41,762 nt of DNA from Chthoniobacterales bacterium (GCA_044326465.1 JBIRBD010000001.1:1-41762), one strand, 5' to 3'; shown: positions 2,644 to 41,762, numbered from the stretch's first letter. Program-made: numbers and translations. Notes: a model not told the origin generated them from the letters alone.

Positions 2644-3849
2644 CTAGACTGTTTCCGCAATTGCTTTTACGACGGAAGCTATTTCATCTTGGCGCAACTC
2701 AGGAAAAATTGGCAATGCGAGTGTTTCTTCTGCGGCGTACTCGGATTCGGGAAAGTCTCCTTTTTTATAACCTAAGTAAGCAAAACATTCCTGTAGGTGT
2801 AGTGGCACTGGATAATAAATCGCATGGCCAATTTTTTTGTTTTTTAGATGGCTGATAATTTTTTCACGTGCCCCACTAGCAGAACTACCAATAACTCTAA
2901 TCACATATTGATGGTAAATGTGATGGTCACGCAACGCTGATGCTGCAAATGGCTCCTCAGGCAAGGTTATGCGATCGAGTAACCCAGCCGCAGTGAAGGC
3001 TGCTTTATAAACTGCAGCATTCGCACGACGTTTTGCATTCCATTCATTAATAAAGGGCAGCTTCGCATGCAAGATGGCAGCTTGTAAGGCATCCATACGA
3101 AAATTTCCACCGACCATTTTATGATAATAACGCTCTTCCATGCCATGATTGCGCAGACAACGAATCCGTTCTGCAATACCTGCATCGCGACAAACAGCAA
3201 GCCCAGCATCACCAGCGGCACCCAGATTTTTACTTGGATAAAAACTAAAATAAGAGGCATCTGCAATCGTTCCAGCTTTAATGCTTTTTCCATGACTTGG
3301 AAAGTCGGTGCCAATGACCTGCGCCGCATCTTCAATTACGAGCAAGCCATACTCCTTGGCAAGCGCGTTGATAGCGTCCATAGCGCAACAAGTTCCAAAG
3401 AGATGAATTGGTATGATCATCTTTACCTTATTTCCAGAGGCTGTGCGCAAGGTGCCATCGGTATCACGCAGAAAAGAAGCAAAAAGAGTTTTTAATTTTT
3501 CTGGATCCATCATGTAAGTCGCTGGATCAATATCACAAAAAACAATTTCTGCGCCAACGCGATGGACGCATCCTGCCGTTGCAAAAAAAGTATAAGGCGT
3601 TGTAATTACAGCATCACCAACACCAATCTCATAGGCCATTAGTAAAGTTAAAAGGCCATCGGTGCCAGAGGAGACAGCGATAACATCAGCACTATTTCCA
3701 AGAAAAGATTTTAGCGCTTGCTCTAAGGCAGTGACCTCCGGACCAAGAATAAATTGCTGATGAGTGAGCACACGCTCTACAGCTTTCTTTATTACGTCAT
3801 CAATAACAGGACCCTGGCGAGAGAGATCAAAAAGGGGGATGGGTTGCAT
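2644..3849 (-). CDS. DegT/DnrJ/EryC1/StrS-family PLP-dependent sugar aminotransferase
   Basis: The family signature is present throughout (LGPEVTALEQAL, SSGTDGL, HLFG, and FYPSKNLGAAGDAG with the PLP lysine). It is a full-length 401-aa ORF. Confidence 0.9.
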   Translation of the reverse strand: MQPIPLFDLSRQGPVIDDVIKKAVERVLTHQQFILGPEVTALEQALKSFLGNSADVIAVSSGTDGLLTLLMAYEIGVGDAVITTPYTFFATAGCVHRVGAEIVFCDIDPATYMMDPEKLKTLFASFLRDTDGTLRTASGNKVKMIIPIHLFGTCCAMDAINALAKEYGLLVIEDAAQVIGTDFPSHGKSIKAGTIADASYFSFYPSKNLGAAGDAGLAVCRDAGIAERIRCLRNHGMEERYYHKMVGGNFRMDALQAAILHAKLPFINEWNAKRRANAAVYKAAFTAAGLLDRITLPEEPFAASALRDHHIYHQYVIRVIGSSASGAREKIISHLKNKKIGHAIYYPVPLHLQECFAYLGYKKGDFPESEYAAEETLALPIFPELRQDEIASVVKAIAETV

Positions 3850-3885: not shown

Positions 3886-4102
3886 GTAATTGCTCATCTC
3901 CTTCTGATCAAGAAGAGGAGCAAAAAGTTGTCGGTTGTTAGTTGTTTTTATTCGAAAAATTTATTTTTTAAGAGTCGCATTTTATTAGCCTCTTAGGGCG
4001 ATACTTTTTTTTAGCAGCTAAGAAAAAGTTATTTCTTTACTATCAAGCGAGAACCAATAACCAACAAGCATTGCTTATTTTCAGAAGGAGATGAGCAATT
4101 AC
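3886..4102. mobile_element. MITE family B, copy B1 (217 bp)
   Basis: It has perfect 21-bp terminal inverted repeats, gtaattgctcatctccttctg (3886..3906) and cagaaggagatgagcaattac (4082..4102). It is flanked by the 8-bp direct repeats cattggac (3878..3885) and cgttggac (4103..4110), matching 7/8. It aligns along its whole length to 18880..19091, and there is no ORF. Confidence 0.85.
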
Positions 4103-4153
4103 CGTTGGACAAGCTTTATATACCATTCGTGCGTGCGCCAGCCGCTATGGTTT

Positions 4154-4654
4154 TTATTTTACAATACCAAACTCAGCACGACGATTCTTAGCCCAAGCCG
4201 CATCGTTCTCGGCTGGATCAGCTGGCATTTCTTTGCCAAAACTCACCGTCTGAATTTTATTAGCAGACAAACCTTGTGCAATTAAGGCTTCGCGGACCGC
4301 TAAGGCACGTCTTTCTCCAAGGCTACGGTTGTACTCTTCGGTGCCGCGATCATCGGTGAAGCCTGCTACAATCACGGTTTTGCCAGAGCTTCGAACTCCT
4401 TGCACGACGCTTAGAATTTTGCTGGCTTGATTGGCGCCAACACTGGTGCTATCAAACGCAAAATAAACAGGTGAATATTCTCCACGCTCAACATTAGAAC
4501 CCATGAAGTTTGCGCTTTCCGACCGATCACTCAAGGGCGTTCCACTGACGTAGTCACCATCGACGCCAGCATACTGTTTATTTTTTTTATTCGCACATGC
4601 TGAGATCATCGTTGTCAGAAGGAGGAGAAGAACGAGAGAAAATTTATTTTTCAT
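4154..4654 (-). CDS. pal: Peptidoglycan-associated lipoprotein (OmpA-family)
   Basis: It has a lipoprotein signal with a lipobox (LLLLLTTMISAC) and a C-terminal OmpA-like domain (VAGFTDDRGTEEYNRSLGERRALAVREAL ... NRRAEF). tolB lies immediately upstream on the same strand. Confidence 0.88.
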   Translation of the reverse strand: MKNKFSLVLLLLLTTMISACANKKNKQYAGVDGDYVSGTPLSDRSESANFMGSNVERGEYSPVYFAFDSTSVGANQASKILSVVQGVRSSGKTVIVAGFTDDRGTEEYNRSLGERRALAVREALIAQGLSANKIQTVSFGKEMPADPAENDAAWAKNRRAEFGIVK

Positions 4655-4786: not shown

Positions 4787-4957
4787 TTAAACCTAAAAAC
4801 GTGAATCAAAATAAAAATTTTGACGCAATATAGTCGGCCTGAAGCGGTTCGTTCTAAAGCCTCACTAACCATGCAGGTTAGCCACGGCTTCATAACAACC
4901 AGCTTCCAATCCAACTCCTTACGCCAACGTTCTCATTTTCATTCACGTTTTTAGTAA
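4787..4957 (+). repeat. Family A palindromic element, divergent subfamily copy (A4, 171 bp)
   Basis: Its termini, ttaaacctaaaaacgtgaat ... attcacgtttttagtaa, include a 14-bp perfect inverted repeat and are the same as those of A1-A3. It has the same length, a shared gacgcaatat block and an equivalent apical hairpin (ctaacc-atgc-aggttag). Confidence 0.7.
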
Positions 4958-7438: not shown

Positions 7439-7473
7439 GTTGTTAGTTGTTGGTTGGTTTTGTTCGAAAATTT
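7439..7473 (+). repeat. Unpaired G/T-rich heptamer array, MITE-B subterminal-like fragment
   Basis: gttgtta gttgttg gttggtt ttgttcgaaaattt matches the B1 interior at 3934..3962 (gttgttagttgtttttattcgaaaaattt). It lies 16 nt from the lgt start codon, where it is C/A-rich in lgt sense, and no TIR is present. Confidence 0.55.
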
Positions 7474-7506
7474 GGGTATAAATTACAGTCTGTATTTTCT
7501 TATTTT

Positions 7507-8157
7507 ATGTTTCAACTCTTTCTCAAAGGTGGCCCTATTATGGGGCCGATTTTACTCATCTCCATCATAGCGCTCACCGTGGTGATCGAGCGAATAATCT
7601 TTCTTCTGCTGGAAGCAAAAAACAGCAACCCAAAAACTGTTAACGCAATGCTGGCAGCTGCGGAACATGACGACTACGAAAAAGCATGGAAGCTTGGCGC
7701 AGCTTCCAAGGATTTCATTGCGCGTGTACTTACGTATGGACTAGCACATCGCGCAACCTCCCTAAGCGAGGCCTTGCTCCAGGCTGCAAACCGCGAACTT
7801 TACCGTTTCAATCGAGGTCTCGCTATCCTTGACACCATCATCACTCTTGCGCCTTTATTGGGACTTCTTGGAACCGTTACCGGAATGATTCATGCTTTTA
7901 GTCTACTCGGAAATAATGAACTTAACGCACCGACAGCCATCACTGGAGGTATTGCAGAAGCCCTTATTGCAACAGCCTTCGGACTCAGTGTTGCCATTGT
8001 TGCGCTGATCCCTTTTAATTATCTTAATAGCCGTTTAGAAAAAGCACGCCTTCAAATCCAAGATGCAGCCTCTTTTCTCGAACTATGCCTGTTGAAGAGG
8101 TTACCCCCCTCAACCTCTCAACCCCTAAACTCTTTCCATGCAGATTCCATCTCTTAA
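7507..8157 (+). CDS. exbB: MotA/TolQ/ExbB proton-channel family protein
   Basis: It has three TM segments and the conserved LAPLLGLLGTVTGMI / GGIAEALIATAFGL core. The start is moved to the ATG at 7507, because the track start at 7447 is a TTG inside the repeat array. The last ~17 codons are array-derived. Confidence 0.85.
   Translation: MFQLFLKGGPIMGPILLISIIALTVVIERIIFLLLEAKNSNPKTVNAMLAAAEHDDYEKAWKLGAASKDFIARVLTYGLAHRATSLSEALLQAANRELYRFNRGLAILDTIITLAPLLGLLGTVTGMIHAFSLLGNNELNAPTAITGGIAEALIATAFGLSVAIVALIPFNYLNSRLEKARLQIQDAASFLELCLLKRLPPSTSQPLNSFHADSIS
8106..8130 (+). repeat. C-rich octamer array (CCCCTCAA CCTCTCAA CCCCTAAA) inside the exbB 3' end
   Basis: It uses the same unit as the arrays at 17250..17296 and 23491..23537. 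It ends 7 nt before the exbD ATG, and 8101..8137 contains no G. Confidence 0.7.
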
Positions 8158-8566
8158 TAGTCGTCGTAAGGCACGCATCGAAATTATCCCGCTAATCGAT
8201 ATTATTTTTTTTCTATTAGCAACCTTTGTCATGGTCTCGCTTTCCATGATTCAAAATCAAGGGATTGCTGTGCATCTGCCTAAAGCCTCCTCCGGATCAA
8301 CACAAGATCGATGCAATGACGTTACAATTACCGTAACAATCGATGGAAGTTATTTTTTTAATCACGAACCAATAACGCATGATCAGCTTTTAGATAAGCT
8401 ACTGGTTGTAAAAAAAACCTCTGTAGAACCACAGGTTTTTATCAATGCCGATACGAAGGCAGACTTTGGTTCTGTCGTCGAAGTTCTCAATGAAGTACGT
8501 AAGCAAGGTATCGAAAAAGTTGCCATTGAGACGAAACCAACTACTGATGTCATGAGTAATAGGTGA
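8138..8566 (+). CDS. exbD: Biopolymer transport protein ExbD/TolR
   Basis: The N-terminus (RRKARIEIIPLIDIIFFLLATFVMV) and a periplasmic ExbD domain are present. It overlaps the exbB end by 20 nt. Confidence 0.87.
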   Translation: MQIPSLNSRRKARIEIIPLIDIIFFLLATFVMVSLSMIQNQGIAVHLPKASSGSTQDRCNDVTITVTIDGSYFFNHEPITHDQLLDKLLVVKKTSVEPQVFINADTKADFGSVVEVLNEVRKQGIEKVAIETKPTTDVMSNR

Positions 8567-8631
8567 TTCAACGATAAATGTCTTCTCCTCATTACTCATT
8601 ACCCATTACTCGGTACTCATTACTCTTCACT
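8552..8631. repeat. Inverted heptamer-array pair spanning the exbD stop and tonB start
   Basis: The left arm atgagtaatagg (8552..8563) abuts the exbD stop codon. The right arm is six tandem heptamers, cattact cattacc cattact cggtact cattact cttcact (8590..8631), which encode TonB residues 5-18. Confidence 0.75.
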
Positions 8632-9255
8632 GCGCTTGCTTTTTTCCTCGCGGTGATTTTCCATGGCGCCCTCTTTCTTCTTGGGCGCTCCTTTTATAAG
8701 CCTCCAGAGTATGCCGTAAGAGAAGGCAATTCGAATCTAGAAGTAGGGCTTGTTGATGCGGCGTCTATGGGAAAAAATTCTTCTGCAACCATTGATGAGA
8801 AGGTAACAACTGCCAAAGTAAAACAAGCAGCAACCCTTGTTTCTGAAAAAAAACTTGAACTATCTTCCCGCACGCATCCAGGAGAAGCGAAAAAGATTTC
8901 TTCTGTTGCCTCAGAAAAAAAAATCGCTGGGCTTTTGAAGTCAGCCCCTAGCTATCTTCGTAACCCGCAACCAACCTATCCAGAAGCAGAGAGAATAAGC
9001 GGTCACGAGGGAGTTGTGTTGCTTCGTGTTGTAGTTACTAAGGAGGGAAAAATTCTAAAAGCTACCATTGAACACTCTTCAGGATATGACGCGCTCGATA
9101 AACGCGCGCTTGAAACAGTGTTAGATTCGTGGAGTTTTCGCCCTGCGCTATTAAATCAGGAGCCAGTTAAGACAGAAATTTTTATTCCAATTCATTTTTC
9201 TCTTAACTCTAAAAACTCAAATTCTAATAAAAAAGCCGGGCTCCTTAACCAATAA
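8578..9255 (+). CDS. tonB: Energy transducer TonB-family protein (in TolA-like position)
   Basis: It has an N-terminal TM anchor (LLFTALAFFLAVIFHGALFLL), a low-complexity linker and a C-terminal TonB_C domain (YPEAERISGHEGVVLLRVVVTKEGKILKATIEHSSGYDALDKRALETVLDSWSFRPA). It follows exbB-exbD. Confidence 0.78.
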   Translation: MSSPHYSLPITRYSLLFTALAFFLAVIFHGALFLLGRSFYKPPEYAVREGNSNLEVGLVDAASMGKNSSATIDEKVTTAKVKQAATLVSEKKLELSSRTHPGEAKKISSVASEKKIAGLLKSAPSYLRNPQPTYPEAERISGHEGVVLLRVVVTKEGKILKATIEHSSGYDALDKRALETVLDSWSFRPALLNQEPVKTEIFIPIHFSLNSKNSNSNKKAGLLNQ

Positions 9256-10319: not shown

Positions 10320-11087
<768 letters not shown>

Positions 11088-11112
11088 AACTCCTAACCTT
11101 CTAAACTAACAC

Positions 11113-11688: not shown

Positions 11689-11858
11689 TTAACCTAAAAA
11701 CGGCAATGGATCGTTATAAATTAGCGCAATATGCTCAGCCTCAAAATGATTTTTCAACCGGCTCACGTACCTTCCAGGTATGCTTCGCCGTTTTAAAAAT
11801 CACTTTTAGACCAAGCCTTTACGCTAATTTATTAACTCCCATCACCGTTTTTAGTTAA
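11689..11858 (+). repeat. Family A palindromic element, copy A1 (170 bp)
   Basis: Its termini are ttaacctaaaaacggcaatgg ... ccatcaccgtttttagttaa. The left half pairs with the right half along the whole element (for example gttataaattagcg / cgctaatttattaac), with the apical hairpin tacct-tcc-aggta. It is ~97% identical to 41634..41762. Confidence 0.85.
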
Positions 11859-13379: not shown

Positions 13380-13383
13380 AAAA

Positions 13384-13536
13384 GGAATTGAAGTGGAAAG
13401 TTGAAGTAGAATTTGGAATATCAGCTGAGTGCAAAATTACTGGAAAAATTCAACGTTGATATTAAGTTGATGTGCCAGACGGCAAGAACTATCTTCGTTT
13501 TAAATTACTTCAACTTCAACTTTCAACTTCAACTTC
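13384..13536. repeat. Inverted 6-7-nt array pair filling the cbpA/serS divergent spacer
   Basis: The left arm is ggaattgaagtggaaagttgaagtagaattt (13384..13414). The right arm is aaatt(acttca)(acttca)(actttca)(acttca)(acttc) at 13502..13536. The arms are reverse complements in several registers (gaaagttgaag / cttcaactttc is perfect), and the core is 87 nt. Confidence 0.75.
13467..13495 (+). promoter_or_regulatory. Candidate serS promoter inside the array core
   Basis: TTGATG (13467..13472), a 17-nt spacer and TATCTT (13490..13495). This would start transcription at about 13502, making the C-rich right array the whole serS leader. It rests on a pattern match only. Confidence 0.3.
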
Positions 13537-13545
13537 TGCATTCAA

Positions 13546-17115: not shown

Positions 17116-17160
17116 GTTGAGGGGTTGAGGGGGTGCTGCCAAACCTCTCTCTCCCTCAAC
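17116..17160. repeat. GTTGAGGG / CCCTCAAC octamer hairpin
   Basis: gttgaggggttgaggggg (17116..17133) faces cctctctctccctcaac (17144..17160) across a 10-nt loop. The G-rich arm is 5'. Confidence 0.65.
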
Positions 17161-17172
17161 TTCGCAATTAAA

Positions 17173-17296
17173 GGGGTTTGAGGGGAAAAAAGTTGAGGGG
17201 GTGAGCATATTACGTTAATTTGTCACGATCCATTGCCGTTTTTAGATAGCCCCTCAACCTCTCAACAGCGACTTTAGTCGCGACTCAACCCCTCAA
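17173..17296. repeat. Composite: G-rich octamer arm + inverted family-A left-end fragment + module D (D2)
   Basis: 17173..17201 is ggggtttgaggggaaaaaagttgaggggg. The reverse complement of 17202..17245 equals ctaaaaacggcaatggatcgtgacaaattaacgtaatatgctca, a family A left end truncated after atatgctca. 17250..17296 is cccctcaacctctcaac-agcgactttagtcgc-gactcaacccctcaa, which is module D in reverse. It ends 8 nt before the purH ATG. Confidence 0.7.
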
Positions 17297-18879: not shown

Positions 18880-19091
18880 GTAATTGCTCATCTCCTTCTG
18901 GCGAAGAAGACGAGCAAGAAGTTGTCGGTTGTCGGTTGTTCGAAAGATTTTTTTTTTAAAAATCCTATTTTATCAGCCTCTTAGGGCAACGCTTCTTTTT
19001 TAGCAGCTAAGAAAAAGTTATTTCTTCACTACCAACCGAGAACCGAGAACCAATAACCATTGCTTATCTCCAGAAGGAAATGAGCAATTAC
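18880..19091. mobile_element. MITE family B, copy B2 (212 bp)
   Basis: The TIRs are gtaattgctcatctccttctg (18880..18900) and cagaaggaaatgagcaattac (19071..19091), matching 20/21. A perfect 8-bp target-site duplication ctctggtt sits at 18872..18879 and 19092..19099. The element fills the purH/aspS convergent spacer and ends 8 nt from the aspS stop codon. Confidence 0.88.
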
Positions 19092-22530: not shown

Positions 22531-23304
22531 ATGGCCAAGAAAAATATTGTTTCTACAAAGAAGGTTTCTAAGGCACCTCAAAAAGCTAAGGCACCTCAAA
22601 AAGTTGTCGCAAAGAAATCTGTGAAAGCACCCGCTAAAAAAATCATTGCCGAAAAATCCGTGAAAGCACCCGCTAAAAAAATCATAGCGGAAAAGTCTGC
22701 TGTTAAAATTTCTCCCGTAAAAAAATCTGTTCCCGTTAAAAAAACAGTTTCTAGCAAACGTTCTGTAAAGCCAGTTGTTCAAGAAAGCCGCGGTGTTTTG
22801 CGGCAGACTTTTGTTAGAGAGCCGAAGATAAAGAGAGGTCCTGAACTTACTCCCTTTTTTGAAAAACAGCGTGTACGTCTCTTGCTTCTTAAGGATACAT
22901 TGCTTGATTCCATGAAAGGAGTAGCTCGTGATAACCTTCATGCAGGAAGTGATGCCTCGGCTTTTGGTATGCACCAAGCTGATGCAGGGAGTGATGCTTA
23001 TGATCGCGATTTTGCTCTAAGTATTTTGTCCCAAGAGCAAAATTCACTTTATGAGATTGACGAAGCGCTCCGTCGCATCGATGATGGGACCTATGGAGTT
23101 TGCGAAATTTCTAATAAGCCAATCTCCCGTGCTCGACTTGAGGCTCGCCCTTTTACTCGCTATACTGTAGAGTGCCAGGCTGAGCTCGAAAAAAGGCAAC
23201 ACTTTTCAGGGGTGCGTTTAGCTGTAAGCTCCCTCTTTGGTCTCACAGAAGAAGAAACTGAAAATGAGGACGACGATAACATCATCGAAAACACAAAAGA
23301 TTAA
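22531..23304 (+). CDS. DksA/TraR-family protein with lysine-rich histone-H1-like N-terminal repeats
   Basis: The C-terminal part matches the DksA zinc-finger region (IDDGTYGVCEISNKPISRARLEARPFTRYTVECQAELE) but has only 2 of the 4 Cys (CxxS...TxxC). The N-terminal ~85 aa are K/A/P/V repeats. Confidence 0.75.
   Translation: MAKKNIVSTKKVSKAPQKAKAPQKVVAKKSVKAPAKKIIAEKSVKAPAKKIIAEKSAVKISPVKKSVPVKKTVSSKRSVKPVVQESRGVLRQTFVREPKIKRGPELTPFFEKQRVRLLLLKDTLLDSMKGVARDNLHAGSDASAFGMHQADAGSDAYDRDFALSILSQEQNSLYEIDEALRRIDDGTYGVCEISNKPISRARLEARPFTRYTVECQAELEKRQHFSGVRLAVSSLFGLTEEETENEDDDNIIENTKD
22570..22695 (+). repeat. In-frame coding tandem repeats (2 x 18 bp, 2 x 39 bp)
   Basis: aaggcacctcaaaaagct / aaggcacctcaaaaagtt lie at 22570..22605. 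tctgtgaaagcacccgctaaaaaaatcattgccgaaaaa / tccgtgaaagcacccgctaaaaaaatcatagcggaaaag lie at 22618..22695. They encode KAPQKA x2 and SVKAPAKKIIAEK x2. Confidence 0.85.
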
Positions 23305-23315
23305 TCATTAAGGAA

Positions 23316-23362
23316 GTTGAGGAGTTGAGTTGCGACTACGTCGCTGTTGAGAAGTTGAGGAG
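23316..23362 (+). repeat. Module D, copy D1 (G-rich arm after the dksA-like stop)
   Basis: gttgaggagttgag-ttgcgactacgtcgc-tgttgagaagttgaggag aligns at ~85% with the reverse complement of 17250..17296. The central hairpin is gcgac-tac-gtcgc. Confidence 0.75.
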
Positions 23363-23490
23363 TTTGGAAGCGCCGCTATTGCGGTAAAATAAGAGTTTAT
23401 TTAACAGACAAAAAAATTTAAAAATTTATTCATTCAAACAGTCTTAAATAAAGACATTCAACTTCTCAAAAAATATTTACTTTAAATTTT

Positions 23491-23551
23491 TCAACCCTCT
23501 CAACCTCTCACATTTAACCCTCTCAACATCTAAACCCGCCGCGATAGCGGC
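23491..23551 (+). repeat. C-rich octamer array plus GC hairpin upstream of rpmG
   Basis: tcaaccct ctcaacct ctcacatt taaccctc tcaacatc taaaccc (23491..23537) contains no G and is the complement type of the D1 arm. It is followed by gccgc-gata-gcggc (23538..23551), which mirrors ccgc-tatt-gcgg at 23373..23384. Confidence 0.7.
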
Positions 23552-23985: not shown

Positions 23986-24169
23986 ACCCGTTCAGAAGAA
24001 CGGATCAGTGAAGAGTAAAGAGTGAAGGGTAGAGAGTATTTTTAGTCTGAAATTAGACGATCATTTGAAATCTACTCTCATACAATCCCTCTTTAGAAAA
24101 CAATTAATAGAAAATTTTGTTTTCACACGATTTACTCTTTATCCTTCACAACCGTTCTGCTGAACGGTT
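23986..24169. repeat. Composite palindrome filling the rpsR/gltB convergent spacer
   Basis: The outer inverted repeat is acccgttcagaagaacgg (23986..24003) and ccgttctgctgaacggtt (24152..24169), and each half is also a local hairpin ccgttc-N4-gaacgg. The inner heptamer arrays are gtgaaga gtaaaga gtgaagg gtagaga gta (24008..24038) and tactctttatccttcac (24133..24149). Confidence 0.75.
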
Positions 24170-28948: not shown

Positions 28949-29120
28949 TTAAGCTGAAAACGGCAATGGATCGTGGTAAGTTAACGCAATATGCTCAGGC
29001 TCAAAATAAATATTTAACCGGTTTACCTACCCATTGGGTATGCTTCACCGTTTTAAAAATTATTTTTAGACTAAGCCTTTAAGTTAATTTTATCACTCCC
29101 ATCACCCTTTTTAGGTTTAA
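28949..29120 (+). repeat. Family A palindromic element, copy A2 (172 bp, diverged)
   Basis: ttaagctgaaaacggcaatggatcgtggtaagttaacgcaatatgctcagg ... cactcccatcaccctttttaggtttaa is collinear with A1. Substitutions in the left arm are mirrored in the right arm. Confidence 0.8.
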
Positions 29121-29153: not shown

Positions 29154-31769
29154 ATGTACCACCAAAACGAAAAAGTAGAGCTCATCGATGTTTCTGAGGA
29201 AATGTCGCGGTCCTTCCTCGACTACTCCATGTCGGTTATTATTTCGCGGGCACTTCCTGATGCGCGCGATGGTCTCAAACCCTCCCAACGACGTATTCTC
29301 TACGCCATGCATGAGCTCGGTGTCATGCCGACACGCAAACATCTTAAATGCGCAAAAATCGTCGGTGAGACGATGGGTAATTATCATCCTCACGGCGATC
29401 AAGCAATTTATCCAACGCTTGTTCACATGGCACAGCGTTGGGCGATGCGTGAGACATTGATCGAAGGTCAAGGAAATTTCGGTTCTGTAGAAGGTGATCC
29501 TCCAGCCTCAATGCGTTATACGGAAGCTCGTCTGAGGCCGCTTGGCGCGTTGCTCATGGAAGACATGGAACATGACACAGTGAACTTTGTTCCAAACTAT
29601 GATGATACACGAGAAGAGCCAACCGTCTTTCCTGCGGCATTCCCAAATCTTCTTGTTAATGGTGGTACTGGTATTGCTGTTGGTATGGCAACAAACATGC
29701 CGCCTCATAATTTGAGTGAAGCGATCGATGCAATTTGTGCGCAAATTGATCAGCCCGAAATCACGCTCGATGAGATCATGCACTTTATGAAAGGGCCTGA
29801 CTTTCCAACGGGTTGTCAACTCTGTGGCGTCACTGGTATTCGTCAATATTTTGAGACGGGACGCGGTTCAGTGAAGGTTCGTGGTCGTGCTGGTATTGAA
29901 GAAATCAAAGGCGGTCGTGAGCAAATCGTCATCACCGAAATTCCGTACAACGTCAATCGCGCAACACTAGTTGAAAAAATTGCAGGACTTGTTAACGAAA
30001 AAACAATTCCAGAAATCAGCGCGATTCGCGATGAATCGGATGAAAATACGCGCGTCGTTGTGGAACTGAAACGGGATGCGATTCCAAAAGTCGTCATCAA
30101 TAATCTTTACAAGTATACCGCGCTGGAATCCTCCTTTTCAGTAACAATGCTGGCGATTGATCGTGGTCGTCCAAAACTTCTCTCGCTCAAAGAAGCAATT
30201 GCATGCTTCATTGAACATCGTCGTGAAGTAATCTTGCGCCGCACCCGTTTTCTTTTGAATCAGGCAGAAGCGCGGGCCGAGAAACTCGAAGGTTATCTCA
30301 TTGCACTGGCTAACATCGATCAATTCATTAAGATCATTCGTGATTCCGTCAACCGCGAGGAAGCAAAAGTAAAATTACTTGCGTTTGAATTTACGAAAAA
30401 ACAAGTCGAGCATTTTGGAATTTTTCTGCGTCATGCAGAGCGTTTGACCGACGGCAGCTACTTGATGAGTGAGGCGCAAGTCGATGCAATTTTAGAACTA
30501 CGCCTCTATCAATTAACCGGTCTCGAGCGTGATAAAATCATCGCGGAATATACGGAGTTGTTAAAAGTTATTGCCGACCTCATCGATATTTTAAATAGTG
30601 AGGAGCGGGTGCTTAGCCTGATGAAATCAGAGCTTTTGGCAATCAAAGCAAAACATGGTCGTCCACGGTTAACCGAAATTATTTCTCAGGAAGGAGAAAT
30701 TTCTATTGAAGATCTTATTGCTAATGAAGGCTCGATCATTACTATCACGCATAAGGGATTTATTAAACGGACGGCCGTAAGCTCCTATCGCGCGCAGAGG
30801 CGCGGTGGCAAAGGCGTAATTGGCATGACAACGCGCGAGGCTTCTAGTGAAACAGATGAAGATGATTTTGTAGAACATCTTTTCACCGTGAGTACCCACG
30901 ACTATTTAGTGTTCTTTACCAAGAGTGGGCGCTGTTACGTTGAGCGTGTTTATGAAATTCCAGAAATGAGCCGTACCTCAAAAGGCCGCTCCATAGCCAA
31001 TATCCTTAATCTACAGCCAGGTGAGAAAATTGCAGCGACATTGCGCATTCAATCCAAAAACAGCGGTGGCGTTGGTGCTGTCGATACGACGTGGGATCCG
31101 AATTTTCACATCTTCTTTGCAACTCGTAGCGGTATTGTTAAAAAATCGAACCTTGGTGATTTTGCAAACATTCGCAAAGGAGGGATCATTGCCATTCAAA
31201 TTGAAGAAGGAGATGAGCTCATTAACGCTGTCCTCACTAACGGTCACGATGAAGTGGTGCTCGTCACCAAAGAAGGGCAAAGCATTCGTTTTAGTGAAGA
31301 AGAATTGCGCGATCAAGGACGCAACACCGTTGGAGTCTGGGGTATCCGTCCTGCAAAAGGAGATACGCTTGTCGCTATAGCCATCGTTTCCAATGATGCC
31401 ATGTTGCTTGTTGCCGGCGAAAATGGTATCGGCAAGCGGACAGTATTTGATGATTATCGGACGCAATCACGGGGAGGCAAAGGAATTATCACCATGAAGA
31501 CTGGTGATAAAACAGGTCTTGTCGTTGGTGCCTTGGCGGTTACTAATCATGACGAACTGATGCTAATTACAACCGGCGGCCAAATGGTCCGAACGCGTGT
31601 TGCCGAAATTCGCGAAACAGGCCGTAATACCATGGGCGTAAAATTAATTAATCTTCACGCTAGTGAAAAACTTCAGGCAATTGCTAGGGTTGTAAGTGAA
31701 ATAGAAGATAGGAAATCGGAGATAGAAGATAAGAGATCGGAGATAGAAGATAGGAGTATTGCTTCGTAA
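29154..31769 (+). CDS. gyrA: DNA gyrase subunit A
   Basis: [45 protein letters not shown], the active-site RYTEARL and C-terminal beta-pinwheel repeats are present. The last 21 codons are a 3 x 21-bp repeat ([21 protein letters not shown]). Confidence 0.96.
31698..31760 (+). repeat. 3 x 21-bp tandem repeat (heptamer-based, G/A-rich) forming the gyrA C-terminal tail
   Basis: The three units are gaaatagaagataggaaatcg, gagatagaagataagagatcg and gagatagaagataggagtatt. Each is 3 x 7 nt, so the array stays in frame. Confidence 0.85.
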
Positions 31770-31898
31770 GACGATTACAATCTCATCATTTATCAACAAT
31801 CTGTTGCTTTATCATTTATCCTAATTTTTATTTGTGATGAGTATACATCAGTCGCATTTGATTTTTAGGTTTTGTTAGTATTAGATTTCGTAAAAAAA

Positions 31899-31923
31899 CT
31901 CCTATCTTCCATCTTCTATCTCC
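31899..31923 (+). repeat. C/T-rich array complementary to the gyrA tail repeat, 6 nt upstream of the secA ATG
   Basis: The reverse complement of ctcctatcttccatcttctatctcc is ggagatagaagatggaagataggag. It gives 13 contiguous bp plus 9 bp of complementarity to 31739..31756. 31891..31929 contains no G. Confidence 0.8.
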
Positions 31924-31929
31924 TAATTA

Positions 31930-34900
31930 ATGTTCAACTGGATCACAAAAAAAATTATTGGTTCTAAAAACCAACGCGAAATTCGGCGCATGGTGCCGAT
32001 AGTGAAGCGTATTAATGAAATAGAATTGGGTTTTCAAACATTGCCTGAGGAAGCCTTGCGCGAAAAGACGGCATTCTGGAAACAGCAACTCGCAGGCATC
32101 ACCGATCATGAGGAACTTGAGCGACAACTTGAGGCTTTGTTACCAGAGGCTTTTGCTCTTGTAAAAAATGGAGCTCGTCGTTTGTGTGGAAAGAAATTTT
32201 TAGTTTGTGATCAAGAAATGACTTGGAACATGGTGCACTTTGATGTGCAGCTTGTTGGAGGCATTGTACTTCATCATGGGCGTATTGCCGAAATGGCCAC
32301 TGGTGAGGGAAAAACCTTGGTTGCGACGCTTCCTATTTATCTGAATGCACTCGCCGGTCGTGGTGTTCATCTTGTCACCGTTAATGACTATCTCGCTAGA
32401 CGTGATGCAGAATGTATGGGGCAGCTCTATGCATTTCTTGGACTCACCGTTGGTATCATCCAGCATGATCAGTCACCTGAAGAACGTCGCGCACAATATG
32501 AATGCGATATTACGTATGGCACGAACAGTGAATTTGGATTCGATTATCTTCGTGATAACGGCATGGCCACAAGCCGTGGTCAGCAAGTGCAGCGTGGGCA
32601 TTATTTTGCCATCGTTGATGAGGTCGATTCTATTTTAATTGATGAAGCGCGTACTCCTCTTATCATTAGTGGGCCTGCAACAATTTCAACGCACCAGTAT
32701 GATCGCTTCAAACCGCTCGTTGCACAGCTCGTACGCAATCAGTCGATGTTTTGCACGCGGTTGATCAATGAGGCGAAGGAGCTTCGAGAAAAAGGAGGGA
32801 AGGAAAAAGTCGGCTTGCTCTTATTTAAAGTAAAACTCGGCCAGCCTAGGAATAAAGGACTTCTTCGGGTGATGGAAGATCATGAGATGCGTAAGCTCAT
32901 CGATAAAGCGGAGCTCTCTTTTTACCAAGATAGTTCCAAAGATGCGTTAGTGAAACTTAAAGAGGAATTATTTTTTACGATCGAGGAGCGACAGCATGAC
33001 GCTGATCTCACGGAGCTCGGGCGTAATTTTTTGAATCCTGAGGATCCGAATGCGTTTGTTTTGCCCGATCTCTTAACGGAATTTGCCGACATTGAAAATG
33101 ATGTCACGCTGAGTCCTTCAGAAAAAGAGATGCAGAAGCAGGCGCGTCAACAACATTGTGATACGCAAGCAGAGAGGATCCACAATATTACGCAGCTGCT
33201 CAAGGCCTACTGCCTTTATGAAAAGGATGTTGAATATGTCGTCGAAGAAAACAAGGTGATCATTGTTGATACTTTCACCGGACGTAAGATGGCAGGTCGT
33301 CGATGGAGCGATGGACTTCACCAAGCCGTCGAGGCGAAAGAGGGGGTGCAGATTGACCGCGAGACCCAGACGCTGGCAACGATTACCATTCAAAATTATT
33401 TTCGGCTTTACGAAAAACTTGCAGGAATGACGGGAACTGCGGAGACCGAAGCCAATGAGTTTCACGATATTTATAACCTCGATGTAACGGTGATACCAAC
33501 GAATAAGCCTGTTTGTAGGGTTGATCAAAACGATCGCATTTATAAAACACGACGTGAAAAATATGCGGCAGTCATTGAGGAGATAAAAATTTCTCATGGT
33601 AGAGGGCAACCTGTACTTGTTGGAACAGCGAGTGTAGAGGCTTCTGAGCTCGTGAGTCGCATGCTCAAGCGAGAAAAAATTCCGCATGCAGTTCTGAATG
33701 CAAAATTTCATAAGCAAGAGGCCGAGATCATCGCGCGCGCAGGTTGGCGTGGAGGGGTCACTATTTCTACGAACATGGCAGGTCGTGGTACCGATATTAA
33801 ATTGGGTGAGGGGGTCGCTGACCTGGGTGGCCTTTTTGTACTTGGCACCGAGCGTCACGAGTCACGGCGCATTGACCGGCAGCTCCGAGGGCGTTGTGCG
33901 CGTCAAGGTGATCCAGGACTTTCTCGTTTTTATATTAGTTTTGAAGATGATCTCATGCGAAATTTTGGTGCAAGCGATCGTATGACAAAAATCATGGAGA
34001 CCTTTGGTATCAAGGAGGGAGAAGAGCTTGAACATCCATGGCTCAATCGTAGCGTAGAGACAGCACAGAAGAGGGTTGAGCAGCGGAACTATTTAGCGCG
34101 TCGTCGCACATTGGAATATGACGATGTCATGAATCAACAACGGGAGATTGTTTATAGTTATCGCAATGAAGTAATGGATTCAGAGGCCCCACGGCAAATG
34201 ATTCACGAAGTTATTGCGGAAGTGGTTCCTAAAAAAGTGAGCGCCTTTTTAGAAGTGCAAAATGACGAGCAGCCTGATGTTTTGGGGCTTTTGCAATGGA
34301 TCAACAATACGTTTCCACTTGGGCTTACCGCGGAGAAAGCCAATTTTTCAGAGCGTAGTGTTGAGGAGAATAGTCAGTTTTTAACGGAGATATTAGTTGC
34401 TGCCTATGACAAAAAAACAGGATTCGAAGATAATGCTGCTCGGAGTGGCTTGGAACGTTATGTGATTTTGAATGCTATTGATCGACTTTGGCAGGAGCAT
34501 CTCTACGCAATGGATGGCTTGCGTGATGCTGTTAACCTCCGTGCTTACGGGCAGAAAGATCCTCTTACCGAATATAAAACAGAGGCTTACACGATGTTTG
34601 TCGACTTGATGCAAAACATCAAAGATGAAGTTCTTAATAATCTTTTTCGAAGTGTGAGCACGTTGCAGTCTTTTGAAACGCTATTGGCCACGTTACCCCA
34701 TAAGCTCACAGGGCCTGAACTTTTATTGCAGCAATCATCACCTTCTGGAGGATATCCAGAAAATTCTGCGCAAGATAGCAATGCTGCCGAACAGCAAAAA
34801 GCTGATCAAGAATTTGCAAAAGCCTTTACAATTCAACGCGAAGTTCCGAAAATCGGTCGCAATGATTTATGTCCTTGCGGCAGTGAAAAGAAGTTTAAGA

Positions 34901-34938
34901 GTTGTTGTGGAAAAACTATCTCTTTTCATCCTCATTAA
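31930..34938 (+). CDS. secA: Preprotein translocase ATPase SecA
   Basis: MATGEGKTLVATLP (Walker A), DEVDSILIDEARTPLIISG, TNMAGRGTDIKLG and the C-terminal zinc motif CPCGSEKKFKSCCG are present. Confidence 0.96.
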   Translation: MFNWITKKIIGSKNQREIRRMVPIVKRINEIELGFQTLPEEALREKTAFWKQQLAGITDHEELERQLEALLPEAFALVKNGARRLCGKKFLVCDQEMTWNMVHFDVQLVGGIVLHHGRIAEMATGEGKTLVATLPIYLNALAGRGVHLVTVNDYLARRDAECMGQLYAFLGLTVGIIQHDQSPEERRAQYECDITYGTNSEFGFDYLRDNGMATSRGQQVQRGHYFAIVDEVDSILIDEARTPLIISGPATISTHQYDRFKPLVAQLVRNQSMFCTRLINEAKELREKGGKEKVGLLLFKVKLGQPRNKGLLRVMEDHEMRKLIDKAELSFYQDSSKDALVKLKEELFFTIEERQHDADLTELGRNFLNPEDPNAFVLPDLLTEFADIENDVTLSPSEKEMQKQARQQHCDTQAERIHNITQLLKAYCLYEKDVEYVVEENKVIIVDTFTGRKMAGRRWSDGLHQAVEAKEGVQIDRETQTLATITIQNYFRLYEKLAGMTGTAETEANEFHDIYNLDVTVIPTNKPVCRVDQNDRIYKTRREKYAAVIEEIKISHGRGQPVLVGTASVEASELVSRMLKREKIPHAVLNAKFHKQEAEIIARAGWRGGVTISTNMAGRGTDIKLGEGVADLGGLFVLGTERHESRRIDRQLRGRCARQGDPGLSRFYISFEDDLMRNFGASDRMTKIMETFGIKEGEELEHPWLNRSVETAQKRVEQRNYLARRRTLEYDDVMNQQREIVYSYRNEVMDSEAPRQMIHEVIAEVVPKKVSAFLEVQNDEQPDVLGLLQWINNTFPLGLTAEKANFSERSVEENSQFLTEILVAAYDKKTGFEDNAARSGLERYVILNAIDRLWQEHLYAMDGLRDAVNLRAYGQKDPLTEYKTEAYTMFVDLMQNIKDEVLNNLFRSVSTLQSFETLLATLPHKLTGPELLLQQSSPSGGYPENSAQDSNAAEQQKADQEFAKAFTIQREVPKIGRNDLCPCGSEKKFKSCCGKTISFHPH

Positions 34939-40935: not shown

Positions 40936-40988
40936 GGATTTGATGTTAGGAGTTTTTTTATAGCAAAGATTTTGACTTTCTAGAGCGG

Positions 40989-41324
40989 TTAGATTTCTTC
41001 TTCTTTGTCTCGCTCAATGCTGGTTACCGCTGCACGATCAAATTCAATTTTTACATTGTCAGCAATTTTGAGTAAAAAAGTTCGATCTTTAACATTCGCA
41101 ACAATGCCATGAATGCCACTGCTTGTAACAACTTTATCTCCCGTCTTGAGTGAACTGATTAATAGTTGATGGGCCTTTTTTTGTTTTTGCTGCGGACGAA
41201 TCAGCAAGAAGTAAAAAATCACACCGATGAAAAGCATGAACGGAATTTGCTGCATCATCGGATTGGCAGATGCTCCTGCAGGTGCTGCTTGAGCGAGAAG
41301 AAAAGCGATAGAGTTTAATTTCAT
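40989..41324 (-). CDS. yajC: Preprotein translocase subunit YajC
   Basis: It has a single TM plus the conserved FYFLLIRPQQKQKKAHQLLISSLKTGDKVVTSSGIHG. It precedes secDF. Confidence 0.88.
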   Translation of the reverse strand: MKLNSIAFLLAQAAPAGASANPMMQQIPFMLFIGVIFYFLLIRPQQKQKKAHQLLISSLKTGDKVVTSSGIHGIVANVKDRTFLLKIADNVKIEFDRAAVTSIERDKEEEI

Positions 41325-41633: not shown

Positions 41634-41762
41634 TTAACCCTAAAAACGGCAATGGTTCGTTATAAATTAGCGCAATATGCTCAGCCTCAAAATGATTTTT
41701 CAACCGGCTAACGTACCTTCCAGGTATGCTTCGCCGTTTTAAAAATCATTTTTAGACCAAGC
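41634..41762 (+). repeat. Family A palindromic element, copy A3 (truncated by window end)
   Basis: Its 129 nt align with A1 (11689..) with 3 substitutions and 1 single-base indel. Confidence 0.85.

Follow-up and report, generated by a model that had tools for sequence, protein, structure and literature searches.

Introduction

Long-range coupling that masks a downstream initiation region is known from the MS2 coat-replicase pair and from E. coli rpmI-rplT. Here we describe a pair of inverted tandem-repeat arrays at the gyrA-secA junction of a Chthoniobacterales bacterium, on a stretch of 41,762 nt (GCA_044326465.1, JBIRBD010000001.1:1-41762; hereafter the window, with coordinates counted from its first letter), where one array encodes the C-terminal tail of GyrA and the other forms the leader of secA. 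An earlier reading of this DNA (the original prediction) had taken the two arrays for a special device that couples secA to gyrA or insulates the one from the other.

The closest reports are of single-unit direct repeats (PMC4679880) and of RNase III-processed intervening sequences (IVSs; PMC4990558) and hmw transcripts (PMC12721329). The IVS in the 23S rRNA of Coxiella burnetii holds an S23p open reading frame (ORF), terminal inverted repeats that form a 28-bp stem, and three tandem GACAGAT heptamers, which vary in number among strains and the first of which opens with an RNase III site (PMC4990558). In the 5′ untranslated region (UTR) of Haemophilus influenzae hmw1A, an (ATCTTTC)n array is one arm of a long hairpin, and processing by RNase III raises expression (PMC12721329). 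Direct repeats of the heptamer TAACTGA precede start codons in Beggiatoaceae, Cyanobacteria and Bacteroidetes (PMC4679880). No description of inverted tandem-unit arms bracketing the spacers of essential genes, with or without S23p or GxxExxY genes, turned up in the literature that we searched.

We propose, with about as much belief as doubt, that the gyrA-secA spacer of the window is an ORF-less, IVS-like example of a type of intergenic hairpin cassette that recurs across the clade, and that its left arm was captured by gyrA. The arms of such a cassette would be inverted 7-8-nt tandem arrays that bracket the whole spacer, from the upstream stop to a few nucleotides before the downstream start, and its plan would be that of an S23p-bearing 23S rRNA IVS moved to spacers between protein genes. 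With the IVSs of C. burnetii and Leptospira (PMC4990558) the locus shares terminal inverted repeats, a long closing stem, tandem heptamers in the stem region (of variable copy number in the IVSs) and insertion into an essential transcript, and in the cassettes of related genomes, as in the IVSs, the loop may hold a decaying TIGR02436 ORF co-oriented with the host transcript. Unlike the IVSs, the cassettes lie between protein genes (gyrA-secA here, gyrB-gyrA in relatives) rather than in 23S helix 25 or 45, and here both arms are arrays, one arm is translated and the window copy lacks an ORF. As in hmw1A, leader heptamers (ATCTTTC there, ATCTTCC and ATCTTCT here) pair with a purine-rich partner, which here lies inside the upstream essential ORF; in hmw1A it is a G-rich non-repeat sequence in the same UTR, and the number of heptamers there phase-varies. 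The TAACTGA repeats likewise end a few nucleotides before a start codon, lack a Shine-Dalgarno (SD) sequence, contain stop codons in their unit and sometimes overlap the end of the upstream ORF; however, they have one unit sequence genome-wide and form inverted pairs in only 1 of 170 sets, whereas here there are many units, typically in inverted pairs.

Results

The gyrA ORF (871 aa; 29154-31769, plus strand), whose C-terminal domain is 86% identical to Chthoniobacterales GyrA, ends with a TAA stop codon at 31767-31769, and secA follows on the same strand (31930-34938), its start confirmed by the conserved N-terminus MF(N/S)WI.KKIIGSKNQREIRR. The left arm (31695-31757, plus strand) is purine-rich, C-poor and wholly within gyrA, and consists of three in-frame 21-nt units encoding SEIEDRK, SEIEDKR and SEIEDRS. 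The original prediction had recognized these three units; their codon register, though, begins at 31695 (AGT, Ser) and not at 31698, and they are codons -24 to -4 of gyrA rather than its last 21, since three codons (IAS) intervene before the stop. As heptamers (31698-31760, plus strand) the arm reads GAAATAG, AAGATAG, GAAATCG, GAGATAG, AAGATAA, GAGATCG, GAGATAG, AAGATAG and GAGTATT, so that the GyrA tail is encoded by about nine copies of a 7-nt unit, GAGATAG (CTATCTC in its right-arm version). Tandem Repeats Finder (TRF) detects a period of 21 over 31701-31755 (2.6 copies, 91% matches) and a period of 7 over 31701-31756 (8.0 copies, 73% matches).

The right arm, CTCCTATCTTCCATCTTCTATCTCC (31899-31923, plus strand), is G-free (CTCCTAT CTTCCAT CTTCTAT CTCC), has a 7-nt period of its own (31904-31921, TRF) and is the secA leader, occupying positions -31 to -7. 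Only TAATTA separates it from the ATG at 31930, in keeping with the original prediction that this reverse complement ends 6 nt before the secA start. The arms are 138 nt apart (31761-31898), not 142 nt as had been given, and most of this interval is an AT-rich core (31770-31898; 129 nt, 26% GC) that the arms loop out.

Complementarity between the arms is extensive. Exact copies of the 13-mer GGAGATAGAAGAT number three in the 41.8 kb, at 31718-31730 and 31739-31751 on the plus strand and at 31911-31923 on the minus strand, and allowing up to two mismatches raises the count in the window to 9, where 1.0 would be expected. There is also an exact 9-bp pair between AGATAGGAG (31748-31756) and CTCCTATCT (31899-31907). 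Both pairings had been proposed before and both are exact, but the third repeat cannot serve them at once, and in the minimum free energy structure the middle repeat forms the 13-bp helix. That structure (RNAfold, 31690-31945; -62.5 kcal/mol, z = -2.9, with 1 of 200 dinucleotide shuffles as stable) pairs 31718-31730 with 31911-31923 and adds flanking helices, and is the long-range hairpin that the original prediction expected from such a fold. Arm against arm, the duplex is predicted at -42.7 kcal/mol versus -21.2 +/- 3.4 kcal/mol for shuffles preserving the composition of each arm (z = -6.4), with about 23 of 27 Watson-Crick pairs; purine-rich Glu/Asp codons facing a pyrimidine-rich leader are therefore not the explanation. 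The long-range pairing is thus real at the level of sequence and predicted to form in RNA, and given the tandem structure of the arms it would probably tolerate shifts of register. Because the best fold pairs 25 of the 33 nt spanning secA positions -30 to +3, the initiation region would be sequestered in a read-through transcript, as had been claimed.

The left arm carries a record of its accommodation in the gyrA reading frame. With a 7-nt period, the TAG of GAGATAG enters the frame in every third unit, and the in-frame heptamers 3, 6 and 9 read TCG, TCG and ATT, with no TAG or TAA, while heptamers 1, 2, 4, 5, 7 and 8 retain TAG or TAA out of frame. The two TCG (Ser) codons, where the heptamer consensus has TAG, are at 31716-31718 and 31737-31739 (plus strand). 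Editing has therefore kept the array free of stops in the frame of gyrA, which accounts for its 21-nt super-period, and the near-identity of the two TCG-bearing 21-mers makes an in-frame 21-nt duplication after capture likely. Perfect 13-bp complementarity ends at the C of each TCG, the C of the second bounding the helix, so that coding constraint overrides pairing at these points. The other two frames meet stops within a few codons, and a 7-nt slip would thus only shorten the tail. Within the left arm, GATAGGAGTATT (31749-31760, plus strand) is the complement, with one mismatch, of the leader 12-mer AAAACTCCTAWC, from which we infer that the secA leader served as template for the left arm and not the other way round.

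The tail itself, with 9 acidic and 5 basic residues, is net acidic. All 80 GyrA proteins of relatives end in ...IAPVVSQ followed by a purely acidic tail of 2-25 aa, and none has a SEIED repeat; such a tail was not found in a metagenome scan (best match 82% identity) and never aligned in a search of 5.8 billion proteins (best match 84% identity). The closest GyrA C-terminal domain in genome contigs, at 86% identity, is from Chthoniobacterales (Verrucomicrobiota), and by these comparisons the window appears to represent an unsampled lineage of this order; the SEIED tail is lineage-specific, repeat-derived and not conserved as protein. The suggestion that repeat DNA had added a charged tail to GyrA accords with this distribution.

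The 39 nt at 31891-31929 contain neither a G nor an SD sequence. The original prediction was right about this, and only its special significance falls away, since start regions in this genome are generally of this kind, as are the secA leaders of relatives without arrays. A strong SD sequence is found in 1 of 30 start regions in the window (AAGGAGG, ORF 40989-41324), and the G content at positions -25 to -1 of these regions is 13.7%, versus 21.9% genome-wide. Several other leaders in the window are G-free arrays, and in three array-less relatives (L005, L006 and L082; loci from related genomes carry L numbers here) the secA leader is CU-rich and SD-less. Initiation in this lineage appears to be SD-independent. 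The 12-mer AAAACTCCTAWC occurs exactly, 14-25 nt upstream of an ATG, at 11086-11097, 31895-31906 and 40945-40956 (minus), where about 0.01 exact matches would be expected, and is absent from the loci of all 160 relatives; the secA copy (AAAACTCCTATC, 31895-31906, plus strand) is the start of the right-arm region. One copy lies at a 25-nt operon junction, and the motif therefore looks like part of a translation-initiation leader rather than a promoter.

Two copies of TTCGTAA lie just inside the arms (31763-31769 and 31887-31893, plus strand). No direct repeats that could be a target-site duplication were found outside the arms, and the internal repeat, which is possibly a target duplication from insertion of the core, is not significant on its own. 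When one TTCGTAA and the 117 nt at 31770-31886 are removed, what remains is a compact hairpin with the gyrA stop in its loop, a 36-nt spacer and a predicted fold of -36.3 kcal/mol. The core between the two copies may be a later insertion into an older, smaller hairpin, with the same limit on the significance of the repeat.

An intrinsic terminator between gyrA and secA had been named as a finding that would speak against coupling; no GC-rich hairpin with a U tract is predicted on the plus strand of 31400-32200, which is not in itself evidence of co-transcription. No sigma-70 promoter was found on the plus strand of the spacer at the scan threshold; a weak extended -10 candidate, TGTTAGTAT (31874-31882), was seen by eye and is not claimed as a promoter. 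Rfam searches at gathering and E-value thresholds gave nothing relevant and no rRNA in the window, and a lone sub-threshold match to a snoRNA was taken as chance.

The adjacency of gyrA and secA is retained in the closest relatives, and four of their spacers are armed by arrays that differ in sequence among genomes and are complementary within each. In L001, GAGTAAA-type heptamers begin about 12 nt past the gyrA stop and a complementary CTTTACY array stops just before the secA ATG; L002 and L026 have octamer arms, GTTGAANN and NNTTCAAC, in the same arrangement, so that in all three loci the left arm is 3′ of the gyrA stop codon. In L020, AGTGAAG/AGTAAAG arrays extend over the final codons of gyrA (ISEE*), and their complement precedes the secA ATG. 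Watson-Crick pairs in the junction arms of these relatives number 35 of 39, 16 of 17, 34 of 40 and 16 of 18. In three of the four (L001, L020 and L026) the best fold has a closing stem that joins the gyrA stop region to sequence a few nucleotides short of the secA start, with z-scores against mononucleotide shuffles of -9.2, -7.4 and -4.5, respectively, and -3.0 for the window on the same measure; in L020 and L026 the stem also takes in the last gyrA codons or the stop codon. Nested in the L020 cassette (3006-3150 of that locus) is a GC-rich inverted repeat of about 30 bp (GTCATTCCAGCGGACGCTGGAATCCAG...) that resembles a different repeat family. Small GC-rich hairpins in L026 (2687-2701 and 3168-3182) can pair either locally or with each other, in which case they lengthen the long stem.

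Cassettes with cores of 400-520 nt hold small genes. The gyrA-secA core of L026 contains a gene of the TIGR02436 four-helix-bundle family (S23p, "23S rRNA intervening sequence protein"; E = 3e-26), and that of L002 a truncated copy. TIGR02436 is also found in L031, L060, L040 and L043, with a frameshifted copy in L030, and a TIGR04256 GxxExxY gene in L067, L079, L029, L058 and others. Between gyrB and gyrA, the spacers of L031 and L060 carry TIGR02436 and that of L067 TIGR04256. The L031 cassette fills its spacer: between the end of gyrB at 3969 and the start of gyrA at 4501, the arrays and the four-helix-bundle gene take up 3971-4486, leaving 1 nt on the gyrB side and 14 nt on the gyrA side. 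Cargo and gyrA share an orientation in every tblastn-matched locus except one. In many Chthoniobacterales (L031, L030, L040, L043 and L060; L067, L079, L029, L058 and L024) the gyrB-gyrA spacer is occupied by an inverted-heptamer-array cassette of about 520 nt, and this one slot holds the four-helix-bundle gene in some genomes and GxxExxY in others.

Inverted arrays are not confined to these junctions. The 41.8-kb window contains about six paired inverted arrays with units of 7-8 nt, including that at gyrA-secA. Units of TTGAAGT (13384-13411 / 13507-13537) and of GTTGAGGG (17116-17133 / 17250-17296) lie between divergent genes; GTTGAGRR (23312-23364 / 23457-23535) lies between convergent genes, and AGTRAAG (24006-24038 / 24133-24149) in a convergent spacer shared with the 23312-23535 pair; CTCATTA (8551-8566 / 8588-8631) lies at an operon junction and overlaps both coding ends. 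The two arms of a pair between divergent or convergent genes cannot share one mRNA. Array units in the window include CTATCTY, CTCAACYY, CTTYACT and others; GTTGAGRR double units number 14 where 0.64 would be expected, and GAGATAG-type arrays are found only at gyrA-secA.

A census of TRF arrays, with periods divisible by three excluded, counted those with a reverse-complement partner within 1.5 kb at a score of at least 11 and used reversed and complemented sequences as controls. In the window and genome loci together (933 kb), 62 of 245 arrays had a partner, compared with 7 in the reversed and 3 in the complemented control, and these collapse to 44 distinct pairs. An independent set of metagenome loci (478 kb) gave 29 partnered arrays versus 2 and 4 in the controls, and in 150 kb of E. 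coli K-12 none of 19 arrays had a partner. Among co-directional contexts with skewed arms, the G-poor arm adjoins the downstream ATG in 13 of 17 and the order is reversed in 4; the others have no clear G/C skew. Three other detectors (autocorrelation, shared 5-mers at equal period, and seed-and-extend with a periodicity threshold on the arms) proved too stringent, passing over pairs that can be seen by eye. When spacer ends were tested for duplex formation in fixed windows, only 13380-13545 and 31770-31929 reached significance, since an arm need not lie right at the end of its spacer.

Other repeats were seen beside these arrays. GC-rich hairpins (e.g., GCGACTACGTCGC, CCGCCGCGATAGCGG and GTCGCCGCAGGCGAC) lie just outside or beside arrays at 23330-23345, 23536-23550 and 17267-17283. 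A cluster of three plus-strand ORFs (7447-8157, 8138-8566 and 8578-9255) has arrays at its junctions: a CTCAACCY array (8104-8130) inside the 3′ end of the first is the leader of the second, and ATGAGTAAT at the end of the second is complementary to a CTCATTA x5 array that runs across the annotated start of the third, whose true start may be further downstream. A MITE-like element (miniature inverted-repeat transposable element) of about 215 nt is present in two copies (3886-4102 and 18880-19091; about 84% identical), with 21-25-nt terminal inverted repeats (GTAATTGCTCATCTCCTTCTG) that read inward with AAGGAG-ATG within, flanking direct repeats resembling target duplications (CTCTGGTT; TTGGAC) and inverted GTTGTCG / CGAGAAC heptamer arrays inside. 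A second palindromic intergenic family (4793-4954, 11694-11854, a partial copy at 41679-41762 and a fragment near 17236-17249) has ends CTAAAAACG...CGTTTTTAG and a partly shared core; the spacer ahead of gyrA also contains a related end, CCATCACCCTTTTTAG, at about 29095-29115. In ORF 22531-23304, perfect tandem repeats (18-nt x2 and 39-nt x2 at 22568-22694) mark a candidate Lys/Ala-rich repeat protein.

A MITE origin was also considered for the gyrA-secA spacer, and rejected for want of a shared core or a conserved terminal repeat among copies. The array-armed spacers resemble MITEs and the REP/BIME palindromes (repetitive extragenic palindromic sequences and bacterial interspersed mosaic elements) in being short, non-coding intergenic elements with inverted ends; unlike them, they have no shared core or terminal repeat and no clear target duplication, and their tandem-array arms differ by site.

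Discussion

In the account that we favour, an array-armed cassette at gyrA-secA would have had its left array captured when the gyrA ORF came to read through it, (SEIED[RK][RK])3 replacing the short acidic tail of relatives. The right arm would be the ordinary G-free, SD-less leader of secA, and the left arm was probably copied from it, for example by template switching within the palindrome. For the RNA level we infer that the arms would zip in a read-through transcript, looping out the 129-nt core, and that the duplex would then be cut by RNase III, as in the rRNA IVS and hmw, or melted as ribosomes translate the tail; secA might instead be made mainly from a promoter in the core. Cutting or melting would allow the insert to be tolerated between two essential genes. 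Coupling of secA is possible, as one of several outcomes at the RNA level.

Several observations weigh against this account. The window core (31770-31898) contains no ORF and no detectable remnant of one, and resembles neither the four-helix-bundle and GxxExxY genes nor any other core, so that its kinship to the cargo-bearing cassettes is one of position and architecture only. No cores are common to non-orthologous sites, which deprives mobility of this support, and many of the pairs counted in the census are orthologous copies and so not independent events. In L005 the gyrA-secA spacer is 42 nt long and has no element, and the best fold of L002 lacks the long stem. With 13 perfect base pairs, and about 23 of 27 when mismatches are included, the window stem may be a weak RNase III substrate. 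Mismatches in the arms are G:U in 25 cases and A:C in 20, with 52 transversion mismatches, and the lack of a G:U bias gives no pointer to strand-specific selection on RNA. Together with the same architecture at divergent gene pairs, it makes a purely DNA-level origin and maintenance equally compatible with these data, and the dynamics of a DNA palindrome, slippage plus template switching, could alone maintain the arms.

An explanation without any RNA role follows from that last point: slippage would make the arrays, intrastrand template switching (quasipalindrome correction) would keep and extend their complementarity up to the limit set by coding constraint, and the GyrA tail and the leader pairing would be neutral by-products. 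The occurrence of the architecture in all gene orientations speaks for it, as do the equal frequencies of G:T and A:C mismatches, the fast turnover of arm sequences among relatives while complementarity persists, and the complement of the leader motif in the left arm, which has no reason to sit in gyrA; heptamers, moreover, are the most slippage-prone unit according to the literature cited in PMC4679880. However, it is the G-poor arm that adjoins the downstream ATG in 13 of the 17 co-directional cases with skewed arms, and cargo is co-oriented with flanking genes in all but one of the tblastn-matched loci; both suggest a constraint at the level of the transcript, and the analogues studied by experiment (IVS and hmw) are processed as RNA. 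We consider a DNA-only palindrome somewhat unlikely.

The dedicated coupling or insulation device of the original prediction would lock the secA initiation region in read-through mRNA, have ribosomes finishing gyrA open it, and leave transcripts started in the core always open. The position of the left arm in the ORF and of the right arm at -31 to -7, with 25 of 33 nt paired, fits such a device; masking ought to matter for an unstructured, SD-less leader with a recurring motif, the genes have no predicted terminator between them, and the stems of L020 and L026 include the last gyrA codons or the stop codon. As in MS2 and rpmI-rplT, a downstream initiation region pairs with an upstream ORF, here in silico only; unlike those systems, the window arrangement is lineage-specific and built from repeat DNA. 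Against the device, a ribosome terminating at the gyrA stop would cover only the last few nucleotides of the left arm, so that any unmasking would have to come from ribosomes translating through the tail, and in L001, L002 and L026 the left arm is past the stop, where translation cannot open most of it. The same inverted arrays bracket divergent (13384-13537; 17116-17296) and convergent (23312-23535; 24006-24149) spacers, which removes the claim that the gyrA-secA pair is special. Arm mismatches have no wobble bias, SD-less and G-poor leaders are generic, and the arrangement is found in one lineage, with no conservation arguing for function. On this evidence a dedicated device is unlikely.

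Selection on the tail as protein is a much poorer candidate. The acidic tail of E. coli GyrA reportedly affects gyrase behaviour (Tretter and Berger 2012), and (SEIEDRK)3 might have expanded because it alters that behaviour, with its Glu/Asp codons pairing incidentally with a CU-rich leader. In its favour, an acidic tail of differing length is present in every relative, the tail in the window has stayed net acidic and its duplications are in frame. Yet composition-preserving shuffles do not reproduce the pairing (z = -6.4), both arms have heptamer periodicity, and the gyrA-secA junctions of relatives have the architecture outside coding sequence, which makes a protein-level origin very improbable. 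A chance or compositional match, to which the partial complementarity of purine-rich tail codons and pyrimidine-rich leaders would lend itself, can be dismissed given the shuffles, the exact-match counts, the census and the recurrence at an orthologous site.

Conclusion

The gyrA/secA pairing is genuine, and we read it as a generic property of the cassettes rather than as evidence of a bespoke regulatory link. As a tentative generalization, which we doubt more than we believe, Chthoniobacterales, and perhaps other bacteria, might harbour "intergenic intervening sequences" that fit exactly from stop to start between adjacent, often essential, co-transcribed genes (gyrB-gyrA, gyrA-secA). These would be closed by register-tolerant zipper stems of 7-8-nt units and hold selfish four-helix-bundle or GxxExxY genes or their remains; the stem and RNase III would neutralize them at the RNA level, and their arms could be exapted as SD-less leaders on one side and C-terminal tails on the other, the GyrA tail of the window being an exaptation caught in the act.

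If the cassettes are real at the RNA level, the concept of the intervening sequence would reach the spacers within operons of essential protein genes, and the unexplained, widespread TIGR02436 (S23p) and GxxExxY families would gain a defined genomic habitat. There would also be a route from non-coding repeat DNA to a protein tail, along which the repeat unit loses its stop codons in a single frame. For those who annotate Verrucomicrobiota, arrays of this kind account for unusual C-terminal extensions peculiar to one lineage and for "missing" ribosome-binding sites.

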